Positions 16,880-52,346 are shown, numbered from the stretch's first letter. The stretch: 64,000 nucleotides of DNA from Candidatus Omnitrophota bacterium (GCA_041651455.1 JBAZJG010000008.1:283-64282), one strand, 5' to 3'. Notes: generated from the letters alone by a model not told the origin. Numbers and translations: made by a program.

Positions 16880-16954
16880 CGTTCTCGCCTAGCCCATTTT
16901 ACCGTTTGTTTAAGTGGCAGAATCCAAGTACAATTAATCCATTTATTAGAATAT

Positions 16955-17731: not shown

Positions 17732-17831
17732 AATCGCACCTCAATCATCTAAAGCTAATTTACATTGCACTTCTGTCAAACTGTTAATGTACGAGGGGCG
17801 CAGTCAATATTTTCTGCTTAAGATTATTTTG

Positions 17832-24393: not shown

Positions 24394-25974
24394 TCAGGTA
24401 TGGACTCTGTAATCTATCTCCGGGAAGATGTTATCCTTATGTTCGATGTCGGCAAGCCAGCCTTCGTCTATGCGCTGGGCTTTTATGTCGTTATAGAGCC
24501 GCGTGAACCTCAGGATATGGTCCTTCGTCCTCTTGACGGCATACTGCACCACGGTCCCGGTCTTCATGATGAACGCCCAGTCGCTTGACTGCGCGAGCAG
24601 CAGTTCGCGCAGCGCCTGGTTCAGCGCTCGGCGCGTTATCCCGGTGGCCCCGGGATAGCTGTTGGCGAGCTCGGTCATGCGGTCGGCGGCCTTGTGCAGG
24701 TGCTTGTATATCCAGTCGTTCGAGCCGTCGAGCCAGTGCTCGCAGTAACCCTTGTATCCCCAGCTCGACATCGTCGGCGTGGAGACCTGGTTGCGCGGGT
24801 TGCGCTCGAGGTATTCCGAAGGCGTTATCGGCTTGACCGTCTTCTGGTCGAAGTGGAGCTTCCTGAAGAGGAAGTCTAGGAACATCGGCCCCTCGTACCA
24901 CCAGTGGCCGTACAGCTCGGCGTCATAGGGCGCCACGATTATCGGGTTCTTCTTCATCACGTCGTGCAGGAACTCGACCTGCTTCTCCCTGTTGAACATG
25001 AAGTTCCCCGCGTGCGACGCCGCCCTCTCGCGCGCCCAATCGGGGTTATACGGTTCCTTGTGGTCTGTGCGGCCGGTTATCCTGTAATATTTGATGCCTG
25101 TATTTATCCTGATGCCTTCCTTGTGGATGTAAGGCCTTATGTAATCGAAATCGAGGTCGAAACCGATGTCGCGATAGAACTCGCGGTAGTTGTAATCTCC
25201 GGGGTATCCCTCTATCGCACTCCATACCTGCTTAGAGGACTCGAAGTCCCTGGCGAACGCAGCGACGCCCGACCTGCAGAATACCGGCGCGTATACGCCG
25301 TATTTCGGGCGCGGGCTCGCGTGGAGTATCCCGTGCGTGTCTGTGAAGAAATAGCGTATGCCCGCCTCTTTGAGGTATGCGTCGGCCCCGGGGAAATATC
25401 CGCACTCCGCCAGCCACGTGCCGCGCGGCCTCCTGCCGAAGAACCTCTCGTAATTGTTCGCGCCGACCTGTACCTGCGCGCGGACCGATTGCGGGTTGAC
25501 CTCCATGAGCGGGAAGAACCCGTGCGTCGCGTTGCAGGTTATTATCTCGAGTTTGCCCATGTCCTGGAATTCCTTGAACGCGGACAGGATGTTCTTATGG
25601 TAGCGGTCGACGAACGTGCGGCGGGTCTCGATGAACTGCGACTGGTACATCAGCGCGAGCCGGTTGAACGCAGGCTCCCATCTCGTGCGCTCGACTTCCT
25701 TATTCGAAAGCTCGATTAGCGTGTCGAGGTGCTTGACATACCTGTCCTGCAATAACGGGTCGGCGAGCATCGAGCACAGCGAAGGCGTTATCGACATCGT
25801 TATGCGGAAATTGACGCCGTCGCGGATGAGCCCGTTGTAAACGTTTATCAGCGGGATGTACGTCTCGGTGATCGCCTCGTAAAGCCAATCCTCCTCAAGG
25901 AAATCCTCGTATTCCGGATGCCGGACATACGGAAGGTGGCTATGCAGGACTATGCAAAGGTAGCCTTTTTCCAT
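24394..25974 (-). CDS. Glycoside hydrolase family 57 (alpha-glucan branching-enzyme-like)
   Basis: 526 aa. N-terminal LHSHLPYV GH57 signature, and the typical length and helical C-terminal region. Confidence 0.85.
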   Translation of the reverse strand: MEKGYLCIVLHSHLPYVRHPEYEDFLEEDWLYEAITETYIPLINVYNGLIRDGVNFRITMSITPSLCSMLADPLLQDRYVKHLDTLIELSNKEVERTRWEPAFNRLALMYQSQFIETRRTFVDRYHKNILSAFKEFQDMGKLEIITCNATHGFFPLMEVNPQSVRAQVQVGANNYERFFGRRPRGTWLAECGYFPGADAYLKEAGIRYFFTDTHGILHASPRPKYGVYAPVFCRSGVAAFARDFESSKQVWSAIEGYPGDYNYREFYRDIGFDLDFDYIRPYIHKEGIRINTGIKYYRITGRTDHKEPYNPDWARERAASHAGNFMFNREKQVEFLHDVMKKNPIIVAPYDAELYGHWWYEGPMFLDFLFRKLHFDQKTVKPITPSEYLERNPRNQVSTPTMSSWGYKGYCEHWLDGSNDWIYKHLHKAADRMTELANSYPGATGITRRALNQALRELLLAQSSDWAFIMKTGTVVQYAVKRTKDHILRFTRLYNDIKAQRIDEGWLADIEHKDNIFPEIDYRVHT

Positions 25975-27014
25975 TATTTTGTGAATTTCTTGACTATAGG
26001 CGTTATCGTGCGCTCTTCTTCCTTGTCGGCCGAGATGCCCTTGACGGAGATCACCTGCTCGCCGTCCGGCAGCGCGAACCGCAGGCTGAACGTGCCGTCG
26101 CGGTTAAGCTTTATCGGCCTGTCCTGGACTGTTACCGTAGCGTCGGGCTCGGTAGCGCCGTAGACGACCAACTCGGTATTGACCACCATCCAGAAACCGC
26201 GGCCCTTGTAGTTAGGCGGGCGCACGAAAGAGCTGAGCCCTCCCGATGAGAGCTCCTGCTGCAGGCGTTCCTTCATTATTTTCTTGATCTTCGCCTTGCC
26301 CGGCGAAGTTCCCCCGAAACCTCCCCATAGGCCGTAAAGCTTCAGGAACTCCTCTTCTATCGACATCCATTCCTCGTCGATGACATCGGAGGCGCCGTCG
26401 CGCGGGGTGACGACGATATTCGAGCGCGCGATGACTATGAACTTTCCGCTAGGGGTAATCACGCCGAAATCGACGCACCATGACCTGTCCGCCGCGCCTA
26501 CGTTGATGTACCAGCTCGTAGAGCCCGGGTGCAGGTCTATATCGAAATACCTGTTGGCATTGAATCCGTTGAAATCCTTGCCTGTCACGTCATAGACGCG
26601 CAGCACCTTGCGCATCTCATTCCATGACGCGCCGGCTTCGCGCTCAACCTGCATGCGCCTTTCGTCCGTGACTTCCCAGTAAGCGAATATCCAGTAGGGG
26701 TCCCGCGCCATGATGACGATACGCGTATCGCCGTAACGCTCCGGCAATTCTTCGTGTTCCCACTGCCTCGGAGGAAGATAAGGGGTCGGACGGGGATAAT
26801 ATTTCGTCTCCTCGGTCTTGTTGCGCGGGGATTCTATCGCCTGCGCCGCCTTCTGCGGGACGGCTTTCTTTACCCTGCCGGCGGCCTTTCTCAGGGCCTT
26901 CATCAGGGCCTTTTTCTGGTCCGCGGGCTTCTTTACGGGCTTCTTAGCCGGCTTCGCTTTCCTGGCAGCAGGAAGTTTCCCCGCTTTTTTTACGGCCTTA
27001 CTGCTCTTCTTCAT
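25974..27014 (-). CDS. DUF4912-family protein with a histone-H1-like Lys/Ala/Pro-rich N-terminal tail
   Basis: 346 aa. Residues 1-60 are K/A/P-rich (MKKSSKAVKKAGKLPAARKAKPAKKPVKKP...). The core PPRQWEHEELPERYGDTRIVIMARDPYWIFAYWEV matches the DUF4912 domain often found beside GH57 genes (from memory). ATGA overlap with the GH57 gene. The SD is AAGGAGG. Confidence 0.7.
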   Translation of the reverse strand: MKKSSKAVKKAGKLPAARKAKPAKKPVKKPADQKKALMKALRKAAGRVKKAVPQKAAQAIESPRNKTEETKYYPRPTPYLPPRQWEHEELPERYGDTRIVIMARDPYWIFAYWEVTDERRMQVEREAGASWNEMRKVLRVYDVTGKDFNGFNANRYFDIDLHPGSTSWYINVGAADRSWCVDFGVITPSGKFIVIARSNIVVTPRDGASDVIDEEWMSIEEEFLKLYGLWGGFGGTSPGKAKIKKIMKERLQQELSSGGLSSFVRPPNYKGRGFWMVVNTELVVYGATEPDATVTVQDRPIKLNRDGTFSLRFALPDGEQVISVKGISADKEEERTITPIVKKFTK

Positions 27015-28907: not shown

Positions 28908-29528
28908 TCAAGAGTATTTTAACGCAATACCCTCTATAGTGACCGCGATATCTTCGCATTTATCGGTGGCTGTCTCGAGGTAATCATAGATGTCCCTCCA
29001 CTTGATGACTTCCAGGGGGTCCGTCTTCCTGTCAAAAAGGCCCGCGACCGCCTCCCTGAGTATCCTGTCGCCCTCGTTCTCGAGGCGGTTGATCTCTATG
29101 CAGTGGCCGATAATCTGTGCGTGCTTTATCTCCTTTATCTTCGGCATTACATAATTGATCTCTTCGGCCTGTTTCAATATGACCTCGGCTATCTCCTTCA
29201 TCTCCGGAGTGGGCTTGGTCACTTTATACAGGACCATGCGCTCCGTGGCGGCCTCGATGAAGTCCATGACGTCATCGAGGGCCGCTGTAAGCTCATGTAT
29301 GTCTTCCCTGTCCAAAGGCGTCACGAACGTCTTGTTCAACTTCTCCATGATATCATGCGTGATCTGGTCGCTGTCATGCTCAAGCCTCTCGAGCTTGGCC
29401 GCGTTCTCCGCGAGCGTATCGAAGTTGTTCGCTATCTCTACCAGCACCTTCGCGCCCCTGAGGAGGTTCTCCGCGCTCTTGACGAACATCTCGAAGAACT
29501 TCACCTCTTGGGGGATCAGTTTGAACAT
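28908..29528 (-). CDS. DUF47-family (PhoU-like / TIGR00153) protein
   Basis: 206-aa helical protein. The conserved DUF47 N-terminus (FFEMF...A..L......L....E.E.D.I.H.I...L...F.TP.DREDI..L...LDD) usually accompanies Pit phosphate transporters. Here it sits next to the H+-PPase gene. Confidence 0.75.
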   Translation of the reverse strand: MFKLIPQEVKFFEMFVKSAENLLRGAKVLVEIANNFDTLAENAAKLERLEHDSDQITHDIMEKLNKTFVTPLDREDIHELTAALDDVMDFIEAATERMVLYKVTKPTPEMKEIAEVILKQAEEINYVMPKIKEIKHAQIIGHCIEINRLENEGDRILREAVAGLFDRKTDPLEVIKWRDIYDYLETATDKCEDIAVTIEGIALKYS

Positions 29529-29544
29529 TAGTTCCTCCGCTGTT

Positions 29545-31902
29545 CTATTTGACTGCCTCGTCGCCGAGCATCATCTCTTTCGTCTCGCGGCGGGACCTGA
29601 ACACTACCCAAAGTATTACCGCCATTCCGGCTATGCCAACGAATATCACGCCGGGATTCATCGTCTCGTTCTTTATCATTATGCCGACTATAAGGAGCGC
29701 GACCATGTTCATGACCTTGATCAGCGGGTTAAGCGCCGGGCCAGCGGTATCCTTAAGCGGATCGCCGACGGTGTCTCCGGTGACCGAGGCCTTGTGGGCT
29801 TCGGAACCCTTCCCGCCGTAAAGCCCGTCCTCTATCGTCTTCTTCGCGTTATCCCACGCGCCGCCCGCGTTCGACATGAACACGGCGAGCAGCTGTCCGG
29901 ACAGGATCATGCCGGCCAGGAAGCCGCCGAGCGCTTCCTTATGGAGCAGGAGCCCGACGAGGATAGGCGTCAATATCGCGAGAAGGCCCGGGCCGACGAG
30001 CTCGCTCTGGGCAGCCGCGGTGCAGATGCTTACGACGCGCCCGTAATCCGGCGTCTTTTTGCCTTCCCATATCTCCTTATCCTTGAACTGGTTCCTTACC
30101 TCCCTGACGATCAGGAACGCGGCGCGGCCGACGGCCCTTATCGTCATCGAGCTGAAGAGGAACGGTATCGCGCCGCCTATCAGCAGGCCGATGAACACGT
30201 TCGGTTCCGATATCGAGAGCGAGGCCGCTATCTGCTCGTATGTCTTTCCCGTGGCCTTCGCGATATCGGTGATGTATGCGTTGAACAGCGATACGGCGGC
30301 GACAACGGCCGAACCGATCGCGATACCCTTCGTGATCGCCTTCGTCGTGTTACCGACGGCGTCGAGGTCGGCCAGCGTCTGGCGCGCGCCCTTGTCGAGG
30401 TGCGCCATTTCGCCTATGCCGTTCGCGTTATCCGCGACGGGGCCGAAGACATCCATCGATATGTTGTTTCCCGTCAGCGTGAGCATGCCGATGCCGCACA
30501 TGGCCACACCGTAGGCGATGAAAGTCGGGTTCGTGCCCGCGTAGATCATTACCGAGGCGCCTATAGCCGCCGCGATTATGAGGATAGCCCATACGGTCGA
30601 CTCGTATCCGACCGCGAGGCCCGTGATTATCGTCGTCGCGTGGCCGGTCTGAGTGGCCCTCGCTATCGACTTTACCGGCGCCGCTTCGGGCTTCGTGAAG
30701 TATTCCGTGACACGGTTGATCGTTATCGCGAGTACGATGCCGACCATCGTCGTCCATACCGGCCTCATATCGAGGCCCGCAACTCCGAAGCTTATCCAGT
30801 TCGGGAGCTGCTCCGAGCCGGGGAACCTCAGGTAATAAAACCCTATTACGCAAAAACCGATTATCGATACCGCGGCCGAAGACCAGAAACCGACGTTGAT
30901 CGCGTGCATCGCGTTGCGCACCTTGTCGCTCGTGCGGACGAGGTACGTGCCGAATATCGAGCTCAATACGCCTATTGCGCGCACGAGCAGGGGAAATATG
31001 ACGCCCTTGTGCCCGAACGACGCCCATCCGAGAATCATCGCCGAGACGATAGTGACCTCGTACGATTCGAAGATATCCGCGGCCATACCGGCGCAGTCGC
31101 CTACATTATCGCCGACGTTGTCGGCTATCGTGGCGGCGTTCCTGGGATCGTCCTCGGGTATGTTCTTCTCTATCTTGCCTACGAGGTCCGCGCCTACGTC
31201 AGCGGCCTTCGTGTAGATGCCGCCGCCGACCCTCATGAAGAGCGCGAGCAGCGTGCCGCCGAAACCGAAACCCAGCAGGACTTCATATGCCTGCTCGCCG
31301 TATATCATGAATATGACCGTGCCGCCGAGCAATCCCAGGCCGTCCGTAAGCATGCCCGTGATCGTGCCGGTGCGGTAAGCTATCTTCAATGCCTGGCCGA
31401 AGCTCGTCCTCGATGCCGCGGCTACGCGCACGTTGCCTTGCACGGCCAGGTTCATCCCGACGAAACCTACCATCGCCGAGAAGAACGCGCCCATGAGGAA
31501 CGCGCATGCCCTTCCTACCTGTATATGGGCGGTTCCCGCGGTGAAATAGAGGCCCGCGGTCAGCACGAACATAAGCAGTACGATCGCCTTGAACTGGCGG
31601 TTCAGGTACGCGTTGGAGCCGAGGCGGATGGCCTTCGATATCTCCTGCATCTTCGGCGTGCCTTTGTCATAGCTCAATACCTGCGCCATAAGGAATCCGG
31701 CGTATAAGAGGCCGAGTATAGCCACCCCTAAAACCGACCAGAGCGCCACTTTTTCCATCATAGTGAATACCGGGTCGTTCATGAAAGCGAACGGCTTGAA
31801 ACCTTCATGGACAGCGACAGCTGCGTCCTGCTGGGCCGCCGCAAGCCCGGAGAACATCGAGAACACGACAACAAAGAAGAGGACCTTGGAAAAACTTTTC
31901 AT
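29545..31902 (-). CDS. hppA: Membrane-bound proton/sodium-translocating pyrophosphatase
   Basis: 785 aa. GDNVGDCAGMAADIFESY and DNAKKTIEDG...GDTVGDPLKDTAGPALNPLIKVMN signatures. There is a roughly 40-aa N-terminal extension resembling a signal peptide (MKSFSKVLFFVVVFSMFSGLAAAQQ). The ATG at 31902 is supported by the SD GGAGGT. Confidence 0.95.
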   Translation of the reverse strand: MKSFSKVLFFVVVFSMFSGLAAAQQDAAVAVHEGFKPFAFMNDPVFTMMEKVALWSVLGVAILGLLYAGFLMAQVLSYDKGTPKMQEISKAIRLGSNAYLNRQFKAIVLLMFVLTAGLYFTAGTAHIQVGRACAFLMGAFFSAMVGFVGMNLAVQGNVRVAAASRTSFGQALKIAYRTGTITGMLTDGLGLLGGTVIFMIYGEQAYEVLLGFGFGGTLLALFMRVGGGIYTKAADVGADLVGKIEKNIPEDDPRNAATIADNVGDNVGDCAGMAADIFESYEVTIVSAMILGWASFGHKGVIFPLLVRAIGVLSSIFGTYLVRTSDKVRNAMHAINVGFWSSAAVSIIGFCVIGFYYLRFPGSEQLPNWISFGVAGLDMRPVWTTMVGIVLAITINRVTEYFTKPEAAPVKSIARATQTGHATTIITGLAVGYESTVWAILIIAAAIGASVMIYAGTNPTFIAYGVAMCGIGMLTLTGNNISMDVFGPVADNANGIGEMAHLDKGARQTLADLDAVGNTTKAITKGIAIGSAVVAAVSLFNAYITDIAKATGKTYEQIAASLSISEPNVFIGLLIGGAIPFLFSSMTIRAVGRAAFLIVREVRNQFKDKEIWEGKKTPDYGRVVSICTAAAQSELVGPGLLAILTPILVGLLLHKEALGGFLAGMILSGQLLAVFMSNAGGAWDNAKKTIEDGLYGGKGSEAHKASVTGDTVGDPLKDTAGPALNPLIKVMNMVALLIVGIMIKNETMNPGVIFVGIAGMAVILWVVFRSRRETKEMMLGDEAVK

Positions 31903-42224: not shown

Positions 42225-43019
42225 CTAGAATACCTCTTTTGAAGCTGCCTTCGATTCTTCCGGATAGATGGTGACCTTCGGCGAGCCGCTCAATATTACC
42301 TTCTGCTCCGCCGCGAGGTATACGGCCTCGTCGCTGAATGTCCAGCTTCCGCCGCGGACTATCTTCACGTTGCCCTTCGCGACTATCCTCGAGACCTTCT
42401 TCGTACCCGAATCGTAATATGCCGTGGCGGTATCGCAGAATATCTGGCCGCGCTCGTCGTCGACCCTGACATTCGTATTGAAGACCGCGTAGTTCTTGCC
42501 GTAATCTATCTCCATCGGGCCGTCGCAGACGATCGTCGTCGGGACCTTCTGCTCCGTGCCGTCCTCTTTCTTCTCGACGTTCTCGGCGAAAAGCTTTACC
42601 GGCTTGTCAGTGACTATCTTCTGGTCCGCGTTCTTCCAGTCGACTTCGTCGGTCATCATCTTCGTGCCGTCGGTGCCGGAGACCACGACGTTCGACTCGA
42701 AATGCGCGTCGCTCGTGTTCCTGTTAAACACTCCCTTATCCGCGGTCAGCGTCATGTCTACTTCTTCGCCGTATGCCTTGGCGACGACATCCGTCAGGTT
42801 CACGACTTCCGTCATGATGTCCGCGGACTTGCCCTGGACTTCCCACTTCTTCCTGCCGCTCTTCTCGTACCCGGCGAGGGAGAAAGCCATGACCTGCTGG
42901 TCGGTCGACAGCGACATCGGTTCTTCCGCCGGCGGATTTGCGGGCTTGTCGCTGCGCACCGCGCAGCCGTTGAACGACAGCGCTATAAGCAGCGCGGCTA
43001 TAAACTTATTCAATCTCAT
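42225..43019 (-). CDS. OstA-like periplasmic LPS-transport protein (LptA/LptC family, lipoprotein variant)
   Basis: 264 aa. Signal plus lipobox (SFNGCA), and a beta-jellyroll-like repeating pattern. Directly upstream of lptB, with adjacent stop and start codons. Confidence 0.5.
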   Translation of the reverse strand: MRLNKFIAALLIALSFNGCAVRSDKPANPPAEEPMSLSTDQQVMAFSLAGYEKSGRKKWEVQGKSADIMTEVVNLTDVVAKAYGEEVDMTLTADKGVFNRNTSDAHFESNVVVSGTDGTKMMTDEVDWKNADQKIVTDKPVKLFAENVEKKEDGTEQKVPTTIVCDGPMEIDYGKNYAVFNTNVRVDDERGQIFCDTATAYYDSGTKKVSRIVAKGNVKIVRGGSWTFSDEAVYLAAEQKVILSGSPKVTIYPEESKAASKEVF

Positions 43020-43902
43020 CTTGAGTTTTCCACCTTTCGTGGAACCAGACCCACTGTGACGGGTATTTCCTGATATACGATTCTATGACCTTCGACCATT
43101 TCTGCGTGTTGGCCATTATATCAGCGTCCTTGTTACCTGTTATTTCGAGCTCAAGCGGTTCCTCCACGTGGATAGTATGCACGCCTTTCTCGCGGACGAT
43201 GAACATGGGTATTATCGGCACCGCGGTCGCGAGTGCCAGTATCACCGGCGCCGTAGGCGTGAACGCCTTGCGCCCGAAGAAATCCACGAAGACGCCGTCG
43301 AGCGACGATATATCCTGGTCCGCGAGTATCGCTATCGACTGGCCTTCCTTTAGCAGCCTCAATATCGCCTTTGCCGACTCGTCCCGCATTATGACGTTCA
43401 CGCCGAGCCCCCTGCGCAGGCCGTTGACCCACGCATCATACTTCTCGTAACGGAGCTTGCGCGCGAGGACGTTTACCGGGTATCTCTTCAGGCCGAAATA
43501 GCCCGCGAGGAGCTCCCAGTTGCCGAAATGCGCCGACAGGACGATGAATCCCCTTTTTTGAGAAAGAGCCTTATCGACTATGTCGAGGCCTTTTATCTTT
43601 ACGTATCTGTCTATGTTCTTTGGGGTGAACTTTGAGGAATTCAGCATCTCGAAAAGGTTCTCGCCGAGATTCCTGAATACCCCCCTTGCTATAACCCGTA
43701 TTTCAGCGCCGGACTTCTCTTTCCCGAAGGCAAACTTCAGGTTCTCTATGGCCTTTTTCCTGGGGGCGGCGGCCAAAAAAAAGGCGCATTCCCCCATCCG
43801 TCTGCCTATAAACCTGTTAATTTTAATCGGAAAGAGAAGCGAGATAAAACTGGCTGTCTTTAGAAGGTAATAAAGATACCTTCTCCTGATCCTATGCTTC
43901 AC
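43006..43902 (-). CDS. Lipid A biosynthesis lauroyl/myristoyl acyltransferase (LpxL/LpxM family)
   Basis: 298 aa. N-terminal TM segment, HFGNWELL (HX4D-like acyltransferase motif), and LPLAT fold features. Confidence 0.8.
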   Translation of the reverse strand: MKHRIRRRYLYYLLKTASFISLLFPIKINRFIGRRMGECAFFLAAAPRKKAIENLKFAFGKEKSGAEIRVIARGVFRNLGENLFEMLNSSKFTPKNIDRYVKIKGLDIVDKALSQKRGFIVLSAHFGNWELLAGYFGLKRYPVNVLARKLRYEKYDAWVNGLRRGLGVNVIMRDESAKAILRLLKEGQSIAILADQDISSLDGVFVDFFGRKAFTPTAPVILALATAVPIIPMFIVREKGVHTIHVEEPLELEITGNKDADIMANTQKWSKVIESYIRKYPSQWVWFHERWKTQDEIE

Positions 43903-43942
43903 AACGCGTTATGATAGCAGAAGATACCCGCCAAGTCAAGCG

Positions 43943-44362
43943 TTAACGCCCGACCCTGAGGGTCCTGAGCTCGTCGCCGACCTTAAGCAGGACCGTATCC
44001 TTGTTTATCTCCAGGACCTTCGCACCGGATATCTCGTCGCCGACCTTTAGCATCTTTCCGTCAATGAGGCATACGGGCTTCTTCGCGTCCCAGAAGATCC
44101 CGGACAGGGAAAGGTCCCCGGTCGCCTGTACCGGCACGCTGCCTACAGCGAACGGGTCCCTGCCCCACGACGGGAAGGAGCTTTTGCCGGGTTCGGTAAC
44201 AGCCGCAGGCCTGTTTGCGGGTGCGGCAACGGCGGCGCCTGCCCCCTTGCTTTGAGCCGCTTTCCTGGACGACCTCGATTTCATGACCGCGGCGAAAAAG
44301 AACACGACGAAGGCAATTATGACCGCCGCAAGTATCATGAGTTGCCGTTTATTTTTGTCCAC
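43943..44362 (-). CDS. PilP-like / GspC-like small pilus-assembly protein
   Basis: 139 aa. N-terminal TM segment, an Ala/Pro-rich linker, and a C-terminal beta-domain (LSGIFWDAKKPVCLIDGKMLKVGDEISGAKVLEINKDTVLL). It is the last gene of the pilM-N-O cluster. Confidence 0.4.
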   Translation of the reverse strand: MDKNKRQLMILAAVIIAFVVFFFAAVMKSRSSRKAAQSKGAGAAVAAPANRPAAVTEPGKSSFPSWGRDPFAVGSVPVQATGDLSLSGIFWDAKKPVCLIDGKMLKVGDEISGAKVLEINKDTVLLKVGDELRTLRVGR

Positions 44363-44957
44363 TGTCTTCCTCTATGGAATATACGGAGACCGTCATACGG
44401 ACCTTCAGCTTGGGGAAGATCCTTTCGTCCTTCGATATCTGAACGTTGTCGACGGTCGCGAACCCGCTCTCAAGGTTGTCCACGGCATGCAGGTACTCGC
44501 CGATGCTCTTGAACGAGGCGCGCATGTCTATGCCTATCGGGAGCACCGAATACCGGAACCCGTCCGCCGACTGGCGCGAACCCGGCGTGGCACTCCTCTC
44601 TTCCTGCGGGTCTATCGTTATGAATTCGATATTCAGCGCCTTGCCCTTCCTCGTCAATTCGTCTATTACCGCCGACGTGTTGCTCCTGGACGGCAATTTC
44701 CTCTTCAGGACGGCGGATTCCGCTTCTATGCCCGTTTTGTCTATCTTATATGCGGCGCTCTGCTTTATCCTGCTTTCCGCGAGCGTCGCCTCCATCTGCT
44801 TCCATTCCTTCTTCTTGGAAATTATCTTCTTTTGCGTCGGGGAGATGACCAGCGCAAAGACCGCGGCAAAAACCATGATGCCGGCCGCAGACATCGCGAT
44901 GGCCTTCTTCCGTGCCAGTAATCCGGAAGGCAGTGTTATCCTGTTTAAAATTCGCAT
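44349..44957 (-). CDS. Type IV pilus assembly protein PilO-like
   Basis: 202 aa. N-terminal TM segment, a coiled coil, then a ferredoxin-like periplasmic domain. Its position after the PilM-N gene supports the call. Confidence 0.6.
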   Translation of the reverse strand: MRILNRITLPSGLLARKKAIAMSAAGIMVFAAVFALVISPTQKKIISKKKEWKQMEATLAESRIKQSAAYKIDKTGIEAESAVLKRKLPSRSNTSAVIDELTRKGKALNIEFITIDPQEERSATPGSRQSADGFRYSVLPIGIDMRASFKSIGEYLHAVDNLESGFATVDNVQISKDERIFPKLKVRMTVSVYSIEEDSGQK

Positions 44958-46528
44958 TTTATCTCGAACTCCGCCTTGGTCTTCGAATCTTCGCTCATCC
45001 TCGCGTTTATAAGCGTCGTCTCGCTGAACAACCCGCCTTCCAGCGCCGTAATGATGGCGGAAAGGGCCTCCTCGCGGTTGGTCGCTTCCCCGCGTATCTC
45101 GCCCTTTATGATGAGGTCCTTATCGTCTATCCTTATGCCCGTAAGCACCGCTTCGCCCGGTATCTTGTTGCTGAGCTCTTTGAGCACTTCCTTCAGCGGC
45201 GGCTCCTCTGACAGCATCTTTGCCATGAAATCCTTCTTCCTGTCGTTATCCTGCCTGATGCGCTCGTAGTTGAGCGCTATCTGTATCTGCGGCCTCATCG
45301 CATCGAGCTCCTTCTCGCCGTATTTGATCTTCTTTTCGTAGCTCGACAGGCGCATCTGCTGGCCTACAAAACCGAGGACGAGCAGGACCACCGCCGCGAC
45401 CACGGCCGATTCGACCGCCGCTTTCCCGAAGGTCCGCGCGGTCTTATGCCGGATCTCTGAAGGCAGCAGGTTTATGCCTTTCCCTTCGCTTAATGCCGCG
45501 CCGACCGCGTCGGCAAACACCTGCGGCTCCGCGCCGGGCACGGCCGCATCATTCGCCAGCTTCATCCCCTTGAACGGGTCGCCGACAGATACGGGCATAT
45601 CCAGCGTATCCTGCAGGAAATGAGCGAGCCCCTTCAGCGAAGCTCCCCCGCCTACGAGCACTACGGATTTTACCTTGTCGCCGAGCGAACCGTCGCTGTA
45701 ATATTCGAAAGAGCGTTCTATCTCCTGGACAAGCCGCTCGGTGGCCGGCCTTATGAGCGACAGCAGCTGCTGGCTGTTTATCTTCCCGTCCAGCAGGTCG
45801 GTGCCCGGCATCGGCGGTATCCCGTGCTTTATCTTGAGCTTCTCCGCCTCTTCGTAACCGAGTTCCACGCGGCCCTGTTCCGTTACCAGCACGGAAGTGA
45901 TCGCCTTCGTTATCGCGATGCCTCCGGACCCTATCTTCCTGTGGAATTTCAGCGAACCGTCCCTGAAGATGCTTATTCCCGTCGATTCCGCTCCGATATC
46001 TATGACAGCCGCCGCTGACGCGCCTGTTATGCCGAGGCGTTGCGCGACATTCTCTATCGCGAGCGGAGGTTCTGTTATCGCGACCGGCTCTACGCCCGCT
46101 TCCGCCATAAGCGCGGTCATCTCGTCTACGAACTTCTTCGGGGACGCGACGAACTTCACGCGCAATTTTTTCAGGCCGTCCCCGCCCGACTCTTCCTGCG
46201 TCTCGTAGCCGATGACCGCCTCTTCGAGCGGGTATGATACCTTATCCTTAGCTTCCCACTTTATCGCTTCCCCGAGTTCCTTATCCGGCATGACGGGGAT
46301 AGTGAAGTAACGAAGGCAGGATGTCGGACAGTCCACGATGCCTATTGCCTTAGCGCCTTTGACCTGCATGCCCGCAAGCGCCTTACCAAGGCCCGCGGAC
46401 CTCGGTACTACATTCGCTTTCCTTACGACCGGCCCCCCGGAGGCGTCGAGATCGATCTCGACGGCCTTTATGAAGGAACTGCCGATATCTATTCCGAGGA
46501 ATACGCTCTTTTGCCCCATATTCATCAC
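44945..46528 (-). CDS. PilM-PilN fusion protein (actin-like pilus assembly ATPase fused to a PilN membrane domain)
   Basis: 527 aa. Residues 1-350 have the PilM/FtsA-like fold (FLGIDIGSSFIKAVE; VIDIGAESTGISIF). Then comes a TM segment (AVVAAVVLLVLGFVG) and a PilN-like periplasmic domain. Confidence 0.8.
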   Translation of the reverse strand: MMNMGQKSVFLGIDIGSSFIKAVEIDLDASGGPVVRKANVVPRSAGLGKALAGMQVKGAKAIGIVDCPTSCLRYFTIPVMPDKELGEAIKWEAKDKVSYPLEEAVIGYETQEESGGDGLKKLRVKFVASPKKFVDEMTALMAEAGVEPVAITEPPLAIENVAQRLGITGASAAAVIDIGAESTGISIFRDGSLKFHRKIGSGGIAITKAITSVLVTEQGRVELGYEEAEKLKIKHGIPPMPGTDLLDGKINSQQLLSLIRPATERLVQEIERSFEYYSDGSLGDKVKSVVLVGGGASLKGLAHFLQDTLDMPVSVGDPFKGMKLANDAAVPGAEPQVFADAVGAALSEGKGINLLPSEIRHKTARTFGKAAVESAVVAAVVLLVLGFVGQQMRLSSYEKKIKYGEKELDAMRPQIQIALNYERIRQDNDRKKDFMAKMLSEEPPLKEVLKELSNKIPGEAVLTGIRIDDKDLIIKGEIRGEATNREEALSAIITALEGGLFSETTLINARMSEDSKTKAEFEIKCEF

Positions 46529-48036
46529 TCGTAATTTTCCCTGCGATGGCCTATCGCCGTCGTGTCGCCAGTATAATTATAGAATGTCCTTATGTTTCCC
46601 GTGTCGCGCGGGTCGTCTTTTACCTTCACCGTAACCCTGAAATCGGTCCCGAGCGACCTACCTACAGATTGTACCTCAAAAGCCTGTGTCGCGTAACAAA
46701 ATTCTGCGGCCGGGTTCGTATATGAGGCCGATCCGCTGACGGGTATAAGAGACGACGCGTCGGCGGTATCAAGGACCCTGTCGCGCTCGTCCGGATTGCC
46801 GGATGTGCTCAGGTAGGCGCGCGTAGTAATGAGACCGTAGAGGTCGGTCGTCACGGAGGTATCCCAATGGTAGAAACACGTGAACGGCGAGACGGCCCTG
46901 GCGTTTATTATATCGGTAGCCAGGCTCGCGGCGTCGGTCCCTCCGAGAGACAGGTTGTCGAAAACGGCTTCAAGCACCTCGCGCGGTGCGGTATTTATGT
47001 TTATCGGCGCGCGCGAGGCCGTGCCGGCCGTCGGAGGCCTGTATGAATACGGATTTATATAGGAATACACCGTTATATAATCCCTTATCGCGTCATATAT
47101 CGCCTGCGTCATGCCGGTTACCCGCTGGACTTCCTCTATTGAATCGAACGGGTTCGTCAGCGCCGCGCCGCGGTAATTTACTATATTGGTCGCCACAGTA
47201 TTCGCTGTGCCGCTCGCGACACCCCGTTCTTCCATCAGGTATCTCAGCAATCCCTGCGTAGCGTAATTTAAGTGGACCTTGCCCGATTCATCGGCGATAG
47301 ACACGGACTGGATGTCCCCGTTGCCCAGGGTAACGGGAAAACTCGCGTAGGAGCCGTTAAACCACGTCTCTGTGTTGGTGTCTATCTCGTACTCGACCCT
47401 TATCCAGAGCGCGTCAAGGTTCATGTTCCTGTTCCCGGAGGTCCTTACGGCGCGAAGCCTGAAGTTCGGGCTCATGATCTGCTGCCATGTGAGGCTTCCC
47501 GTTATATCCGCGGAATAATTCACGAGCGTAGTGCTGTTCGGCAGGGCCTGCGTCATGACCGTCGTATATACCGAGCCGTCGGTGGTATATGAGACCTGCA
47601 TAGTGGCGCCGGTGCCCCCGGTAGCCCTGCTGGCCCTCGCGAACAGCGCCACCGAAACGATGCGCGCCTGTGTATAGTTCGAATCGAAGGTCCTGATTAT
47701 CGCCTGGTCATTGTTATTATTCAAAGTGGAGTTGCTATTGTCTATATACGACAACCGCGACGCGCTCCCTACGCTGACGCACAACGAAGTGTCCGCGCCG
47801 CGGAGGTCCGCCTCACCCGTCTGTGTAGAGGTAAGGTAGTCCGCGCGCAACTGCCTGATAGCCCTGTCTACGCCGGCGTCCGCCAGGTGCAATAACCTGT
47901 AATCATTCGCGCCGAATACGGTATCGCGTATCTCATGCGACGCGATGAACATGAGCCCCGCGACAAAGAGGCTCATGGATACCATCAGCAGGAATACGAG
48001 TATCAGCAGCGATCCTGCGCCGCGTGTATTTCGCAT
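46525..48036 (-). CDS. GspK-like minor pseudopilin (long variant)
   Basis: 503 aa. N-terminal hydrophobic segment, and the GspK hallmark ININTAPREVLEAVF (HhH-like). A central Asn/Thr-rich insertion makes it much longer than typical GspK. Confidence 0.65.
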   Translation of the reverse strand: MRNTRGAGSLLILVFLLMVSMSLFVAGLMFIASHEIRDTVFGANDYRLLHLADAGVDRAIRQLRADYLTSTQTGEADLRGADTSLCVSVGSASRLSYIDNSNSTLNNNNDQAIIRTFDSNYTQARIVSVALFARASRATGGTGATMQVSYTTDGSVYTTVMTQALPNSTTLVNYSADITGSLTWQQIMSPNFRLRAVRTSGNRNMNLDALWIRVEYEIDTNTETWFNGSYASFPVTLGNGDIQSVSIADESGKVHLNYATQGLLRYLMEERGVASGTANTVATNIVNYRGAALTNPFDSIEEVQRVTGMTQAIYDAIRDYITVYSYINPYSYRPPTAGTASRAPININTAPREVLEAVFDNLSLGGTDAASLATDIINARAVSPFTCFYHWDTSVTTDLYGLITTRAYLSTSGNPDERDRVLDTADASSLIPVSGSASYTNPAAEFCYATQAFEVQSVGRSLGTDFRVTVKVKDDPRDTGNIRTFYNYTGDTTAIGHRRENYE

Positions 48037-48039
48037 CTG

Positions 48040-48579
48040 TCAGAGATTCCTTAATTTTACCTTCGAGCGCAGTGTAAAAGTCTCGTCGCCGTCGCTGACC
48101 GTTATCGTGACCGCGACCGCCCTGACCTGGGATGCCGTGACCGGGAATGCAAGCAGGTTATCGTTAGTATCGTAATACGAGAACGCTATCGAATCGACGG
48201 AATTCACGACGGCGTCCGTGGAATTCACGGCCGGGACCGTGGATGTGAAGGTCCTGTTCAGCGGATCCCCGGCCGTATTGTCCCACGCGTATTGTATCGT
48301 CTCTTCCGCGCCGTTGCCGTCATAGTCCGCCGTAAACCTGATGCTGCGCTCGAGCGCCTGTCCCGATACTACGGAGGTCGCGCGACGGAGTTCCGCGGAG
48401 AGCGAGGCCAGAGTCCTTGAGGCCTCCCCCTTTATCCCCGTGCGTTTCCATTGCGAATACGAGACGTCGAAACCGAAATTATAGACCATCACGACCGCGC
48501 CGAGCAGCGCAGCCACAAGGAACGCCGATATTACGAGCTCAATTACAGTGAACCCGCGCCTTTTATATGTCCGAAACAT
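48040..48579 (-). CDS. Pseudopilin (GspJ-like) with a class III prepilin signal
   Basis: 179 aa. KRRGFTVIELVISAFLVAALLG prepilin leader with a G/F cleavage site and Glu+5. Confidence 0.65.
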   Translation of the reverse strand: MFRTYKRRGFTVIELVISAFLVAALLGAVVMVYNFGFDVSYSQWKRTGIKGEASRTLASLSAELRRATSVVSGQALERSIRFTADYDGNGAEETIQYAWDNTAGDPLNRTFTSTVPAVNSTDAVVNSVDSIAFSYYDTNDNLLAFPVTASQVRAVAVTITVSDGDETFTLRSKVKLRNL

Positions 48580-48940
48580 ATGTCACCAGGCTGAAACTCA
48601 ATTCATCCGATTTCGACTGCCAATAGACGGTAACGTTGACCTGCTTCAAGCTTGCCATCGGGGTCGTAACTACTACTTCCCTCTCGAATGACGTGAAACC
48701 GTCGACCGGAGCGCGGGCCTCGCCCGTAACGGATGCGTATGCCGTGTTCCTTATGTCCTCCATACGCTCCTGCGCAAGGTTCGCGGCCACGAGCTCCTGT
48801 TCGCTGCCGCCGGTGACAAAAAGCCCCGTCACGACCGCCTGTGACAGGGCTATGAAACCGCCGACCATAAGGACAACGGCCAGCAGGACTTCAAGAAGCG
48901 TGAAGCCTTTTCTGTTGCGCACGTTAGGGCTGGGTATCAC
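48563..48940 (-). CDS. Pseudopilin (GspI-like) with a class III prepilin signal
   Basis: 125 aa. NRKGFTLLEVLLAVVLMV prepilin N-terminus. Confidence 0.65.
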   Translation of the reverse strand: MIPSPNVRNRKGFTLLEVLLAVVLMVGGFIALSQAVVTGLFVTGGSEQELVAANLAQERMEDIRNTAYASVTGEARAPVDGFTSFEREVVVTTPMASLKQVNVTVYWQSKSDELSFSLVTYVSDI

Positions 48941-49358
48941 GCCCCGCGTTCGATACGTATATGCAGCTCGTCCCGTTCGTCTCCGTTATGACGCCGGTAT
49001 TAGCCACCGAAGCGCTTCCGTTCCCGCCGGTTCCGACGGAATAGAGGACATAATACCTGCCATCCGGGGACTGCGCGTAACCGTAATCGTTTCCGACGTT
49101 GAACGGGTCTTCGGGAAGCGTCGCATCGACGATCTGCGGGGTCGCGGTCGTAAGGTTCGAAAGCGCGGCAGGATAAGTGTTGTTGTTATGCATGTAATAG
49201 CTCTCTACGGCCGCCTGCAGCGTGACGAGTTCGCCCTTTGCCTTCGCAACATTGCCTTCCTCCTGCATGCCGCGGAACCTCGGCAAGGCTATCCCGATAA
49301 GTATCGCGATAACCATGATGACTATCAACAACTCAATAAGCGTGAAACCTTTCCTCAT
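48924..49358 (-). CDS. Major pseudopilin / type IV pilin (GspG/PilA-like)
   Basis: 144 aa. MRKGFTLIELLIVIMVIAILIGIALP is the canonical N-methylation motif. Confidence 0.75.
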   Translation of the reverse strand: MRKGFTLIELLIVIMVIAILIGIALPRFRGMQEEGNVAKAKGELVTLQAAVESYYMHNNNTYPAALSNLTTATPQIVDATLPEDPFNVGNDYGYAQSPDGRYYVLYSVGTGGNGSASVANTGVITETNGTSCIYVSNAGRDTQP

Positions 49359-49375
49359 CTTACTCCTCCTTTTTG

Positions 49376-50590
49376 TTATCGCCTGAGTATCTTTATCAGG
49401 TCGAACATCGGTATTAGAGTCGAGGCCATAATGACTGCCACGACGGAACCCATTATCAACAAGAACGCAGGTTCAAGGAATGCCGTAAGTTTTTTTATAC
49501 TGTAAGCGACAGCCGAATCGTAAAGGTCGGCGACCTTGTTAAGCATAACGTCAAGGTTGCCGGTCTCTTCGCCTGCCGCGATCATCTGTATGGTGTCGGG
49601 CGGGAACTCCCCGCTTACCTTAAGCGGTTCCGAGATCTTGCTGCCCCCGCGCACCGCCTCGCGGACGGTCGCCATTACGCGGGCAAGCACCTCGTTGCCG
49701 ATAGTGCCTTCGAGTATCTCGAGCGATTCGAGGATCGGCACACCGCTCGAGAAGAGCGTGGCCAGCGTACGCCCCGCGCGCGATATGGCGGCCTTCCTCA
49801 TGAGCGGGCCTATTACCGGAAGCGAGAGCTTCAGCTGGTCGAACTGCAGCCTGCCGATACCCGTATTCACATAGATCCGCGCGGCAATGGCAACGGCCAG
49901 CGCCGCAAGCACGTAGAGATGCCAGTAATCCCTTAAAGCGATCCCTGCCGAGTTGAGTATCCGCGTTATCAGCGGCAGCTGGACATGGAACTTGTCGAAT
50001 ATCTCGGCGAATTTCGGGATAACGGATGTGACTATGAATATCACGGCGGCGGAAGCGGCAAGCGTAAGTATGGCCGGGTATACGAGCGCCGAGCTGACCT
50101 TCTGCCTCAAGTCAAGTTCGCTCTCACCAAAATCCGCAAGCCTCTTCAGCACGAGAGGAAGGTTGCCGCTCGCTTCCCCTGCTTTAACCATGCTTATAGT
50201 AAGGCGTGCAAACACGCCCGGGTGGCTTGCCATCGCCTCGGAAAGGGAAAGGCCCGTCTCCACCTTGAGCCTGACGTCGGATATAACCTTCTTTATCTGC
50301 CTGTTCTCCGCCTGTAACGATATCGAATTGAGGCATGTGAGCAACGGGAGCCCGGCATCAAGCATGTTTGAAAGCTGTATATTAAAAAAGATCGTGTCTT
50401 CGACGCTTATCCTGTTGAAACCTCCGAGTATCTCTTCCAGGGAGACATTGCCCGCCGCCGGCCAGACACCCGTAACGACGTATCCCATCCTCCGTAGCTT
50501 GTCGGCCAGTTCGTGCTCGGTGGAGGACTCCATAGCGCCTTCCACGAGCTTGCCCGCCTGGTCCCTTGCCTTATAACGGAAATTCGGCAT
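49376..50590 (-). CDS. Type II secretion / type IV pilus platform protein (GspF/PilC family)
   Basis: 404 aa. Two T2SSF repeats and three TM segments. N-terminus FRYKARDQAGKLVEG. Confidence 0.9.
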   Translation of the reverse strand: MPNFRYKARDQAGKLVEGAMESSTEHELADKLRRMGYVVTGVWPAAGNVSLEEILGGFNRISVEDTIFFNIQLSNMLDAGLPLLTCLNSISLQAENRQIKKVISDVRLKVETGLSLSEAMASHPGVFARLTISMVKAGEASGNLPLVLKRLADFGESELDLRQKVSSALVYPAILTLAASAAVIFIVTSVIPKFAEIFDKFHVQLPLITRILNSAGIALRDYWHLYVLAALAVAIAARIYVNTGIGRLQFDQLKLSLPVIGPLMRKAAISRAGRTLATLFSSGVPILESLEILEGTIGNEVLARVMATVREAVRGGSKISEPLKVSGEFPPDTIQMIAAGEETGNLDVMLNKVADLYDSAVAYSIKKLTAFLEPAFLLIMGSVVAVIMASTLIPMFDLIKILRR

Positions 50591-50593
50591 CGT

Positions 50594-52294
50594 TTACTCT
50601 TCCTGCTGGGTGACTCGCATGACCTCTTCGAGCGTCGTCTTGCCTGCCTTGACTTTTTCAAGGCCGTCCTGCTGCATCGTCTTCATGCCCGCCTTAAGCG
50701 CGGCCTTCCTTATCTCCGACGTGGAGGCCTTAGCCACGGTCAATCCTCGTATATCGTCGCTGGGCACCATAAGTTCGAATATTCCTATCCTGCCCCTGTA
50801 GCCGGTCTGCATGCATTTATCGCAGCCCTTGCCGTGGTAAAATTTAACGCTGTCCCTATACGAGATCATTCCGACGTCCTCGAGGACATTGTCCGAGGGC
50901 TTATATTCCTTCTTGCAATCGGGGCAAATGAGCCGCACGAGCCGCTGCGCAATGACACCGGTTATCGACGATGACACGAGGAACGGTTCGAGCCCCATGT
51001 CGATCAGGCGGGTTATCGCGCCGGGCGCGTCGTTCGTGTGCAGCGTGCTCAGGACGAGATGGCCCGTAAGGGCGGCTTGTATGGCGACTTCCGCGGTATC
51101 GAGGTCGCGGATCTCGCCCACCATCACGATGTCGGGGTCCTGGCGCAGTATCGAGCGCAGGCCGCTCGCGAACGTCAGCCCTGCCTTCGGGTTGATCTGC
51201 ATCTGCCGGACCATATGGAGGCGGTATTCGATAGGGTCTTCTATAGTGACGATATTCTTTTCGGGGGAGTTTATAGTGCTCAGCGACGAATAGAGCGTGG
51301 TCGTCTTTCCCGAGCCGGTCGGCCCGGTCACCAATATGATGCCGTACGGCTTGCGTATGAGCTTTTCGTATACCGTTAGGTCGTCCTTCGAAAAACCCAG
51401 GTCGCTCAGCCCCAGCAGGACGCTGTTAAGGTCAAGCAGCCTTATCACCACGTTCTCGCCGTATACGGTCGGTATCGTGGAAACCCTGCAATCTATCTGG
51501 CGGTTCTCTATCTTAAGCTGGAACCTGCCGTCCTGGGGTATCCTGCGCTCCGCGATGTTCATTCCGGAGAGTATCTTTATTCGCGATATGACCGCCGCCT
51601 GCAGGTTCTTCGGGGGAGAGACGACCTCGTGCAGGACGCCGTCTATCCTGTATCTTGTCAGCAGGCTATCCTCTTCCGGCTCGATATGTATGTCCGACGC
51701 CCCGGCCTTGAGGGCTTCCATGACGACGAGGTTCACGAGCCGGACTACCGGCGCTTCCTCGACGAGCCCTTCGAGCGCCTTCAGTTCAGATTCCGCCCCG
51801 TCCTTCGCGGTCAGCTTATCCTTATCGATGGATTTGACGATATCGTCCATCGTGCCTTTCGCGCCGTAATACTGGTCGAAGACGCGCTGGAGGTCCTTGT
51901 CCGAGACGACTACCGGCTCAACCTCGCACCTTGTCCTCGCGCGGACCTCGTCTATCGCGAATACGTCCATAGGGTCCGTCATAGCGATGGTCAGTGTATC
52001 GGCGATCTTGAACAGCGGGAGAACGGAATTCTTCCTGCAGAATGTTTCCGGGAGGAGCTCGACGACCTTCGGGTCGAGGATATAATTGGAGAAATCTATG
52101 CGCGGGATGCCCATCTGACCTTCAAAAAAGGTCAGGATAGCATCCTCGTCCACCATGCCGAGTTTCACGAGCACGCGCCGCAGCGGCTCCTTGGTCTTCT
52201 CGACCTCGGCCTTCGCCTTTTTGAGCTTCCCGGCATCGATGAGGCCGAGTTCGACGAGCGCTTCTCCGAGAGATTTTTTCTCTCTTTTCGGCAT
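50594..52294 (-). CDS. Type II secretion / type IV pilus assembly ATPase (GspE/PilB family)
   Basis: 566 aa. N-terminal T2SSE_N domain, Walker A VTGPTGSGKTTTLYS, Asp/His boxes, and a tetracysteine motif (CPDC...C..C). Confidence 0.9.
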   Translation of the reverse strand: MPKREKKSLGEALVELGLIDAGKLKKAKAEVEKTKEPLRRVLVKLGMVDEDAILTFFEGQMGIPRIDFSNYILDPKVVELLPETFCRKNSVLPLFKIADTLTIAMTDPMDVFAIDEVRARTRCEVEPVVVSDKDLQRVFDQYYGAKGTMDDIVKSIDKDKLTAKDGAESELKALEGLVEEAPVVRLVNLVVMEALKAGASDIHIEPEEDSLLTRYRIDGVLHEVVSPPKNLQAAVISRIKILSGMNIAERRIPQDGRFQLKIENRQIDCRVSTIPTVYGENVVIRLLDLNSVLLGLSDLGFSKDDLTVYEKLIRKPYGIILVTGPTGSGKTTTLYSSLSTINSPEKNIVTIEDPIEYRLHMVRQMQINPKAGLTFASGLRSILRQDPDIVMVGEIRDLDTAEVAIQAALTGHLVLSTLHTNDAPGAITRLIDMGLEPFLVSSSITGVIAQRLVRLICPDCKKEYKPSDNVLEDVGMISYRDSVKFYHGKGCDKCMQTGYRGRIGIFELMVPSDDIRGLTVAKASTSEIRKAALKAGMKTMQQDGLEKVKAGKTTLEEVMRVTQQEE

Positions 52295-52317
52295 CTCTTC
52301 TCCTTTTATTGAATCAT

Positions 52318-52346
52318 AGTATACGTTAGGAGATTTTCTTTGTCAA
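52318..52346 (-). promoter_or_regulatory. Consensus-like sigma70 promoter for the pilus/T2SS cluster (-35 TTGACA 52346..52341, 17-nt spacer, -10 TATACT 52323..52318), then the SD GGAG at 52303..52300 and the ATG at 52294
   Basis: The minus strand reads TTGACAaagaaaatctcctaacgTATACTatgattcaataaaaGGAGaagagATG. The -35 overlaps the kdsC stop codon. Confidence 0.55.

Follow-up and report, generated by a model that had tools for sequence, protein, structure and literature searches.

Introduction

The described systems closest to the one considered here are the type IVa pilus (T4aP), built in Myxococcus xanthus, Thermus thermophilus and Pseudomonas aeruginosa from PilB, PilC and PilMNOPQ, and the type II secretion system (T2SS; Gsp, Eps or Pul), encoded by gspC-O. 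The canonical gsp operon follows the order E-F-G-(H)-I-J-K-L-M, and the known role of the HR domain is to dock on the N0 domain of the secretin. A further point of reference is the Amuc_1098-1102 region of Akkermansia muciniphila, a relative within the Planctomycetes-Verrucomicrobia-Chlamydiae (PVC) group, whose order we take to be pilin, PilM-like protein, PilO-like protein, small protein and secretin, the last of these being kept. Omnitrophota themselves are ultra-small, uncultured and probably predatory or parasitic bacteria, and their pili are thought to be central to host attachment. The two families of machine are connected by established equivalences, PilM plus PilN corresponding to GspL, PilO to GspM, and PilP to the HR domain of GspC (PMC4471445). 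A survey based on TXSScan reported T4aP in nearly all Omnitrophota genomes and expression of pili in V. archaeovorus (PMC10066038); the text-searchable supplementary files of that study contain no per-gene pilus table. In addition, a Tad/T2SS-like locus with gspD has been described beside the giant genes of Omnitrophota (West-Roberts et al.). Here, a type IV filament gene cluster was analysed at positions 43943-52346 of a 64,000-nucleotide stretch of DNA (hereafter the window) from a Candidatus Omnitrophota bacterium (GCA_041651455.1, JBAZJG010000008.1:283-64282), which a sequence-only reading had taken for a hybrid T2SS/T4aP machine that lies within a string of lipopolysaccharide (LPS) genes and has no secretin.

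A nine-gene filament operon

The locus is a real and intact nine-gene operon for a type IV filament, either a pilus or a pseudopilus. It is best explained, with a probability that we put at roughly 0.6, as a T4aP-like machine that is typical of the phylum, carries T2SS-like pilins and forms one part of a multi-locus system. This explanation is supported by the gene content, conservation across the phylum, purifying selection, the fold of the HR domain, conserved promoter motifs and the presence of a secretin gene in cis in relatives outside the core Omnitrophota. Its T4aP-like aspect would be argued for by the layout of the ATPase, the PilM, PilN and PilO assignments, and the Che, CheY and PilZ regulators found in relatives.

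The source is a metagenome-assembled genome (MAG), and the PilM-PilN fusion (PilMN) of the window is identical to NCBI MFA5165005.1, encoded on an 84,455-bp contig of which nearly the whole length was covered by the analysis. All nine open reading frames (ORFs) were found on the minus strand between 52294 and 43943, exactly where they had been proposed, and are close-packed or overlapping. Along that strand they encode an assembly ATPase of the PilB/GspE family with an N-terminal MshEN domain (566 amino acids, 50594..52294; Pfam T2SSE, 1.6e-143, and MshEN), an inner-membrane platform protein, PilC/GspF (404 amino acids, 49376..50590; Pfam T2SSF, 9e-58), a major prepilin with a GspG-like globular domain (144 amino acids, 48924..49358; N_methyl and T2SSG), a GspI/PilV-like minor prepilin (125 amino acids, 48563..48940; N_methyl, with weak matches to TIGR02523 pilV and TIGR01707 gspI), a minor prepilin in the GspJ/PilW position (179 amino acids, 48040..48579; N_methyl only), a large GspK/PilX-like minor pilin (503 amino acids, 46525..48036; Pfam T2SSK and HHH_3), the PilM-PilN fusion (526 amino acids, 44945..46525; TIGR01175 pilM, Pfam PilM_2 and PilN), PilO (202 amino acids, 44349..44957; Pfam PilO, 1.8e-9, above cutoff) and a small bitopic HR-domain protein of the PilP / GspC-HR / GspB class (139 amino acids, 43943..44362; weak T2SSB and GspC_delta matches).

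Family relationships of the components

The ATPase scored 653.8 bits against TIGR02533 GspE, above the cutoff of 630.25, and 657.8 bits against TIGR02538 PilB (cutoff 675.65), where the match spanned residues 9-563 and thus the full length. Its best matches in the PDB were the full-length PilB proteins of Geobacter and Myxococcus (526-538 bits), compared with 444-448 bits for GspE/EpsE chains, which aligned chiefly over the catalytic core; within that core the EpsE score was higher than that of the PilF core. Residues 9-60 were also observed to resemble the MshEN tandem motif for binding cyclic di-GMP (c-di-GMP; NF053729, 34 bits, cutoff 38), which hints that filament assembly may be under c-di-GMP control through the N terminus of the ATPase. 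The platform protein fell below the cutoff of TIGR02120 GspF (368.8 bits against 424).

The N termini of all four pilin-like proteins resemble class III signal peptides, with MRKG|FTLIELL in the major pilin, RKG|FTLLEV in the I-like and RRG|FTVIEL in the J-like protein, and with RG|AGSLLIL in the K-like protein, which has no Glu at position 5. The major pilin matched TIGR01710 gspG below its cutoff (4e-15, 55.9 bits, cutoff 88.85), and PulG (5wda) was its sole PDB match to reach well past the N-terminal helix. Of the minor pilins, the I-like prepilin reached 22.9 bits against the GspI family of NCBIfam (cutoff 44.35), and the 503-amino acid protein scored 31.6 bits against Pfam T2SSK (cutoff 24.2) and 38.5 bits against NF037980 GspK (1e-9, below the cutoff of 130). 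In the PDB, sequence and profile searches with the latter protein returned nothing except its helix-hairpin-helix motif, and a profile search with the J-like prepilin returned pilin N termini only. Among the cluster prepilins NCBIfam gave no GspJ match past the N terminus, and no separate GspH-like gene was detected in the cluster. The proposed set of three minor pseudopilins (I-, J- and K-like) is therefore present in the inventory, with the qualification that 'J-like' denotes a position and a prepilin motif only.

The periplasmic platform is of the Pil type. The PilM-PilN fusion scored 135.6 against TIGR01175 pilM (cutoff 133) and 22.8 against Pfam PilN, a value exactly equal to the cutoff, and its best PDB match was M. 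xanthus PilM (1e-22). The INLLP motif is invariant and is retained at the fusion junction, at residues 351-355. The fusion also matched NF045709, the Amuc_1101 family, over residues 72-456 (127.6 bits, 6.5e-37), below the cutoff of 650. PilO scored 38.3 against Pfam PilO (cutoff 22) with PilO 3jc8 as its best PDB match (E = 0.037). In the Pfam and NCBIfam searches the GspL and GspM positions are thus occupied by the PilM-PilN fusion and PilO, and none of the cluster proteins matched a GspL family or a GspL chain in the PDB. Together with the evidence on the HR domain given below, these assignments bear out the PilM-PilN fusion, PilO and PilP-like gene that the sequence-only reading had named.

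The mixed flavour that it had remarked on is equally real, GspG- and GspK-like pilins being combined with a PilM/PilN/PilO platform and an ATPase of PilB layout. The mixture is not unusual, however, because the same layout is standard across Omnitrophota and because the equivalences between Pil and Gsp components are known.

The HR-domain protein

The 139-amino acid protein at the end of the cluster consists of an N-terminal transmembrane helix, a linker, a WGRDPF motif and a C-terminal beta domain of the HR type. No PDZ or coiled-coil region and no recognizable lipobox were detected in it. Its homologues share the transmembrane helix, a variable linker, the WGRDPF motif and a beta domain of ~55 residues, whether or not a secretin gene is next to them; in L019, L022, L024, L026, L029, L030 and L032 (loci are numbered L001 onward) the homologue lies directly upstream of one. 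A family profile searched against the PDB matched the HR domain of GspC from enterotoxigenic Escherichia coli (3oss_C, E = 0.044), which was crystallized with the N0-N1 domains of GspD, followed by M. xanthus PilP (3jc8, E = 0.24) and Dickeya GspC (E = 0.85). In an AlphaFold model made from the single sequence, the beta domain had predicted local distance difference test (pLDDT) values of 82-89, and the top two Foldseek hits of the model were 3oss_C and Dickeya GspB (4wfw), with a probability of 1.00 each.

The E-values are marginal singly; taken jointly, the profile, the fold, the T2SSB and GspC_delta matches and the synteny are consistent with an adaptor that docks on a secretin. The ratio of nonsynonymous to synonymous substitution rates (dN/dS) for this protein is 0.14-0.21, and since an HR adaptor has been kept under purifying selection, a secretin partner would be expected to be encoded in trans.

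Conservation and selection

Homologues of PilMN, from 92% down to ~25% identity, came almost entirely from Omnitrophota MAGs where the source was named. A PilMN profile built from a 10-sequence alignment (one of 15 sequences proved too divergent) was used to scan one genome per GTDB species and yielded 25 loci. When the ORFs of these loci were compared with the window proteins by BLAST, the order E-F-G-I-J-(K)-MN-O-HR was recovered in ~20 loci, either whole or as far as the contig reached, and the nine-gene layout was found in Omnitrophota loci with PilMN 29-92% identical to that of the window. All nine ORFs were intact in every relative examined. Compared with L004, L010, L006 and L007, the nine genes had dN/dS values of 0.01-0.21, similar to those of the flanking kds, lpt and tig genes and indicative of a functional cluster rather than a remnant; for the major pilin they were 0.013-0.026 against close relatives. 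One conserved filament operon, including a PilM-PilN fusion, is common to the phylum, and relative to related MAGs outside the core Omnitrophota it has lost the cis secretin.

Several features of individual relatives were noted alongside. In L019 (1-21700) genes for a hybrid histidine kinase and a pair of CheY-like regulators precede the cluster, and CheW, CheR, CheB and CheA come after it, a control context typical of type IV pili; in L023, from Omnitrophota, a PilZ-domain gene (356-754) lies upstream of the cluster. No such Che, CheY or PilZ regulators adjoin the cluster in the window's lineage. The pilin genes G-I-J-K (46525-49358) are 44-65% identical to those of L021, where PilMN is only 29% identical, and 34-45% identical to those of L012, where PilMN is 46% identical, a pattern suggesting that the pilin genes may be swapped as a cassette among Omnitrophota. 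No homologue of the GspK-like protein was detected in loci L012 or L017. The idea that the major pilin is the most conserved component in the phylum, which would have spoken for a T2SS, was dropped, as global alignments showed a pattern of similarity unlike that of the rest of the cluster.

Absence of a secretin gene from the locus

The sequence-only reading had stated that neither the cluster nor the window holds a GspD/PilQ secretin, and this was upheld. A hidden Markov model (HMM) was built from 20 secretins recovered during the analysis and run with filters off against stop-to-stop segments in six frames; its best match in the window had E = 0.67. The other sizeable ORFs of the window gave no Pfam match to Secretin, Peptidase_A24 or a second T2SSE domain, and no paralogues of the nine cluster proteins were found elsewhere in it. 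Nor does a secretin gene lie just outside, as might have been suspected, none being present in the ~8 kb past each end of the window that could be followed on three contigs from the same organism (ENA sample ERZ27247363). On one side these extensions contain housekeeping genes only, namely a gene for a trpS/tyrS-type synthetase, scpAB and genes of aromatic amino-acid metabolism; on the other they contain LPS-core genes, among them lpxK and genes for an epimerase and for glycosyl- and heptosyltransferases. In the literature, nothing was found on the absence of a secretin or on the LPS context in Omnitrophota.

Relatives outside the core of the phylum differ at precisely this place. In L019, L022, L024 and L026, which are MAGs labelled Elusimicrobia, Clostridia or unclassified, a protein of 517-528 amino acids with STN, Secretin_N and Secretin domains is encoded directly after the HR-protein homologue, and in L027 and L028, where the gene order is less similar, a secretin likewise follows. 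In all core Omnitrophota loci examined, the gene after the HR protein is lpxL, an AmiC-type amidase with a racemase, a SpoU methylase, or a response regulator with a histidine kinase. The simplest reading of this distribution is that the order ...MN-O-P-Q was ancestral and that the secretin gene was then removed from the locus in Omnitrophota, as the gene orders would indicate.

PilQ-type secretins of ~450-520 amino acids, which are candidate partners, do occur under the Omnitrophota label, in separate loci. These take the form PilB(x2) - PilC - ... - PilO - HR-like protein - PilQ, with a separate PilM gene (L029, L032 and L033), and the short contig L030 carries only the PilO-HR-secretin core. 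As a prepilin peptidase gene is also absent from the window, the locus is not self-sufficient in any case, and we infer that supply of the secretin in trans is the best reading. Such a separation of the secretin gene from the PilP-like gene is mildly unusual.

The LPS gene neighbourhood

Upstream of the cluster lie hldE, kdsB, pyrG, kdsA, kdsD and kdsC, and downstream an lpxL-type acyltransferase gene, a gene for an LptC+LptA-like fusion, lptB, hpf, tig, clpP and lon, all co-directional with it. The bracketing by kdsC/kdsD/kdsA and lpxL/lptA/lptB that had been proposed is thus correct apart from one gene, as what had been called lptA is an LptC-LptA fusion. This gene (42225-43019, minus strand) encodes one 264-amino acid protein with an LptC domain at residues 10-148 and an LptA/OstA-like domain at 169-254; in E. 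coli LptC and LptA are encoded by two separate genes. The E. coli genes kdsD-kdsC-lptC-lptA-lptB-rpoN-hpf are contiguous, and in the window the nine filament genes, together with lpxL, are placed precisely at the junction of kdsC and the lptC-like gene.

Relatives whose PilMN is as little as 46-47% identical still retain the junction downstream (HR protein-lpxL-lptCA-lptB-hpf-tig-clpP-lon). The kds junction on the upstream side was seen in L004, L010, L012 and L017 and not in L009. More distant Omnitrophota have neither, and in these the cluster is beside response regulators, a PilZ protein, an amidase or a SpoU methylase.

The cluster region has only two intergenic gaps, each containing one motif that resembles a sigma-70 promoter on the minus strand. 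The motif TTGACA-17-TATACT (52318..52346), in the 48 bp that separate kdsC from the ATPase gene, was the top site in a scan of 17.5 kb, with a score of 11/12; neither hexamer varies among L004, L010, L012 and L017, in contrast to the diverging spacer around them. The second motif, TTGACT-17-TATCAT (43911..43939), lies in the 40-bp gap between the HR-protein gene and lpxL, where it would serve lpxL and mark the point at which the pilus cluster ends on its 3' side; in nine loci, with PilMN identities as low as 47%, its -35 hexamer is invariant and its -10 hexamer nearly so. The division into transcription units that the two motifs imply is putative.

Three further observations concern lpxL itself. 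In this region (43860-43939, minus strand) the end of the -10 hexamer and the GTG start codon are 8 nt apart, suggesting that the lpxL mRNA may be leaderless, and a hairpin within codons 6-14, AGAAGGUA/UACCUUCU, is conserved, two double substitutions in it (in L017 and L008) being compensatory. The Pfam acyltransferase domain begins at residue 4 of the ORF.

A suggestion that the placement might link filament or secretion assembly to outer-membrane biogenesis was not sustained, as the LPS context is limited to the lineage of the window (PilMN identity of at least 46%) and the cluster and lpxL have separate conserved promoter motifs. Nearly all genes in the window are on one strand, so that co-direction with neighbours carries little information, and because the cluster has its own promoter motif its position between kdsC and lptC is read as incidental. 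The placement, a lineage-specific rearrangement, looks like a chance outcome of gene order that one lineage has stably maintained.

Other features of the window

Copies of hldE from the same ENA sample are 85% (L001, 153-1157) and 100% (L003, 11476-12480) identical to that of the window, and the neighbouring kdsB copies are 100% and 97% identical, respectively. This suggests either that strains co-exist or that hldE marks a breakpoint of recombination or of assembly.

Between a DUF3352 gene and proS, positions 8000-18000 form an island of low GC content (0.33-0.50, against 0.565 elsewhere). It contains an AbiU/AIPR abortive-infection gene (14871-16565, minus strand; PADLOC AbiU, 3.6e-125), an HNH endonuclease gene (14251-14799) and several ORFs with no family match, and the region corresponding to it in the same-organism ENA assembly carries a BrnT toxin gene. 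The island is probably a mobile defence island. A gene for a GH57 alpha-glucan branching enzyme (24394-27014, minus strand) was found beside a DUF4912 / glucodextranase-B-like gene, within a uppS-cdsA-dxr-rseP-ispG-proS string. Two large plus-strand ORFs, at 21207-22508 and 29155-31707, were rejected as genes, being shadows of dxr/rseP and of the H+-pyrophosphatase gene on the minus strand.

Discussion

In the T4aP-like system that we favour, a prepilin peptidase encoded at another locus would cleave the four prepilins, and minor pilins of the I/J/K-like type would prime the filament. Powered by the PilB-like ATPase, whose MshEN N-domain may respond to c-di-GMP, the GspG-like major pilin would be polymerized on the platform that PilC provides. 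A ring spanning the periplasm would be made up of PilO, the HR protein and the PilM-PilN fusion, and the HR domain would dock on N0 of an outer-membrane secretin whose gene also lies elsewhere in the genome. The machine would probably produce a surface pilus with which the cell attaches to other cells or takes up material from them, with a short secretion pseudopilus as the alternative.

A number of points weigh against this explanation. No PilT or PilD gene is present in the window, which has no second ORF of the T2SSE family and no Peptidase_A24, and the absence of PilT in particular does not speak for a T4aP. The ATPase lies above the GspE cutoff and below that of PilB. A periplasmic pseudopilus would fit the major pilin, which is GspG-like, contains one cysteine and is highly conserved among close relatives. 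Regarding the secretin, none among the matches listed could be tied to the genome of the window or to those of its close relatives; PilMN homologues and Omnitrophota PilQ proteins did not match in their NCBI accession blocks; and none of the best 80 PilQ loci from Joint Genome Institute (JGI) metagenomes resembled the window in tetranucleotide composition (best r = 0.81, against r >= 0.90 for controls from the same lineage), the PilQ matches being dominated by high-GC soil bacteria. Finally, the promoter motifs are consensus matches with no mapped transcription starts, and no terminator-like site was detected in either gap, so that read-through from kdsC or into lpxL is possible.

Some of the same evidence bears on the alternatives. 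It could be that the cluster is a functional T2SS in which a short GspG-like pseudopilus with an I/J/K-like tip pushes folded exoproteins, for example hydrolases directed at prey, through a secretin supplied in trans, with the PilM-PilN fusion, PilO and the HR protein acting as GspL, GspM and GspC. The gene order agrees with that of the canonical gsp operon, the ATPase passes the TIGR02533 GspE cutoff and is nearer to EpsE than to the PilF core in its catalytic part, the major pilin matches Pfam T2SSG and aligns past its N-terminal helix only to PulG, the large minor pilin is above the Pfam T2SSK cutoff, and both the lack of PilT in the window and the low dN/dS of the major pilin (0.013-0.026) would suit a secretion system. 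Set against this, GspF, GspG, GspI and GspK all remain under their NCBIfam cutoffs and no GspH was found, the platform belongs to the PilM, PilN and PilO families with no GspL family or PDB chain matched, the ATPase shows the complete PilB layout, MshEN included, the clusters of relatives adjoin Che-type, CheY-like and PilZ regulators, and the window has no secretin. We regard a T2SS, the main rival, as unlikely, and a decaying remnant, left useless by loss of the secretin, as scarcely credible. The absence of the secretin at the locus and its retention in relatives labelled Elusimicrobia or unclassified would fit such decay, but it is effectively refuted by nine ORFs that are intact in all relatives examined, by an arrangement that persists across the phylum and by dN/dS values (0.01-0.21) like those of the flanking housekeeping genes.

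Another interpretation dispenses with the secretin altogether, the cluster encoding an envelope machine that is confined to the periplasm, or that crosses the outer membrane without a dedicated secretin, and that is coupled to LPS, 3-deoxy-D-manno-octulosonic acid (Kdo) and Lpt biogenesis. It draws on the lack of a secretin beside the cluster in any core Omnitrophota locus examined and of one tied to the lineage of the window in searches among the matches listed, on the insertion of the cluster exactly between genes whose E. coli counterparts, kdsC and lptC, are adjacent, and on the amidase and racemase genes after the cluster in L021 and L025. We nevertheless consider it improbable, given that the HR protein suited to secretin docking has been kept under purifying selection, that more distant Omnitrophota with the same cluster have no LPS context, that separate conserved promoter motifs precede the cluster and lpxL, that co-direction is uninformative in a window almost all on one strand, and that PilQ secretins are present in other Omnitrophota. 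A broader version, in which the nine-gene machine lacks a secretin of its own throughout the phylum and either borrows the PilQ of the second system or works as a periplasmic filament, so that in the lineage of the window its fixed position between kdsC and lptC could reflect a part in the construction or remodelling of the envelope, is doubtful, if somewhat less so. If PilQ is borrowed, one outer-membrane pore would serve two filament machines, and should whole genomes prove to lack a secretin, this would be a rare example, among bacteria with two membranes, of a filament machine that has none. The absence of a secretin from one locus, however, is no evidence for a new kind of machine. What the analysis provides is a cleaner parts list for the study of the Omnitrophota cell surface.

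Comparison with known systems

The cluster resembles the T2SS in its order E-F-G-...-I-J-K-L-M, in its GspG-like major pilin and large GspK-like minor pilin, in having a single ATPase that exceeds the GspE cutoff, and in an HR protein that matches the GspC HR domain and GspB structures. It differs from the T2SS in lacking GspD, GspH, GspN and GspO, in carrying PilM, PilN and PilO families at the L and M positions, in an HR protein without PDZ or coiled coil, and in an ATPase with the MshEN N terminus of the PilB type. Compared with Akkermansia Amuc_1098-1102 (NF045709), the long PilM-like protein similarly reaches past the PilM domain, but with a score of 127.6, far under the cutoff of 650, the PilMN of the window is not a member of the Amuc_1101 family.

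With the T4aP, the cluster has in common an ATPase of PilB layout with MshEN, the PilC platform, PilM, a PilN bearing INLLP, PilO, a PilP-like HR protein and the core set of minor pilins; its relatives add a secretin gene directly after the PilP-like gene and regulators of the Che, CheY and PilZ types. It departs from the T4aP in the fusion of PilM with PilN, in having no secretin gene beside the PilP-like gene, in the absence of PilT, PilD and PilY1 from the locus, and in a GspG-like major pilin without a disulfide-forming pair of cysteines. The second pilus locus of Omnitrophota (L029, L030, L032 and L033), unlike that of the window, carries a secretin and a separate PilM gene and has no I/J/K minor-pilin set; it comes from the same phylum, shares the component families, and has an HR-like protein with a weak T2SSB match encoded directly upstream of the secretin.

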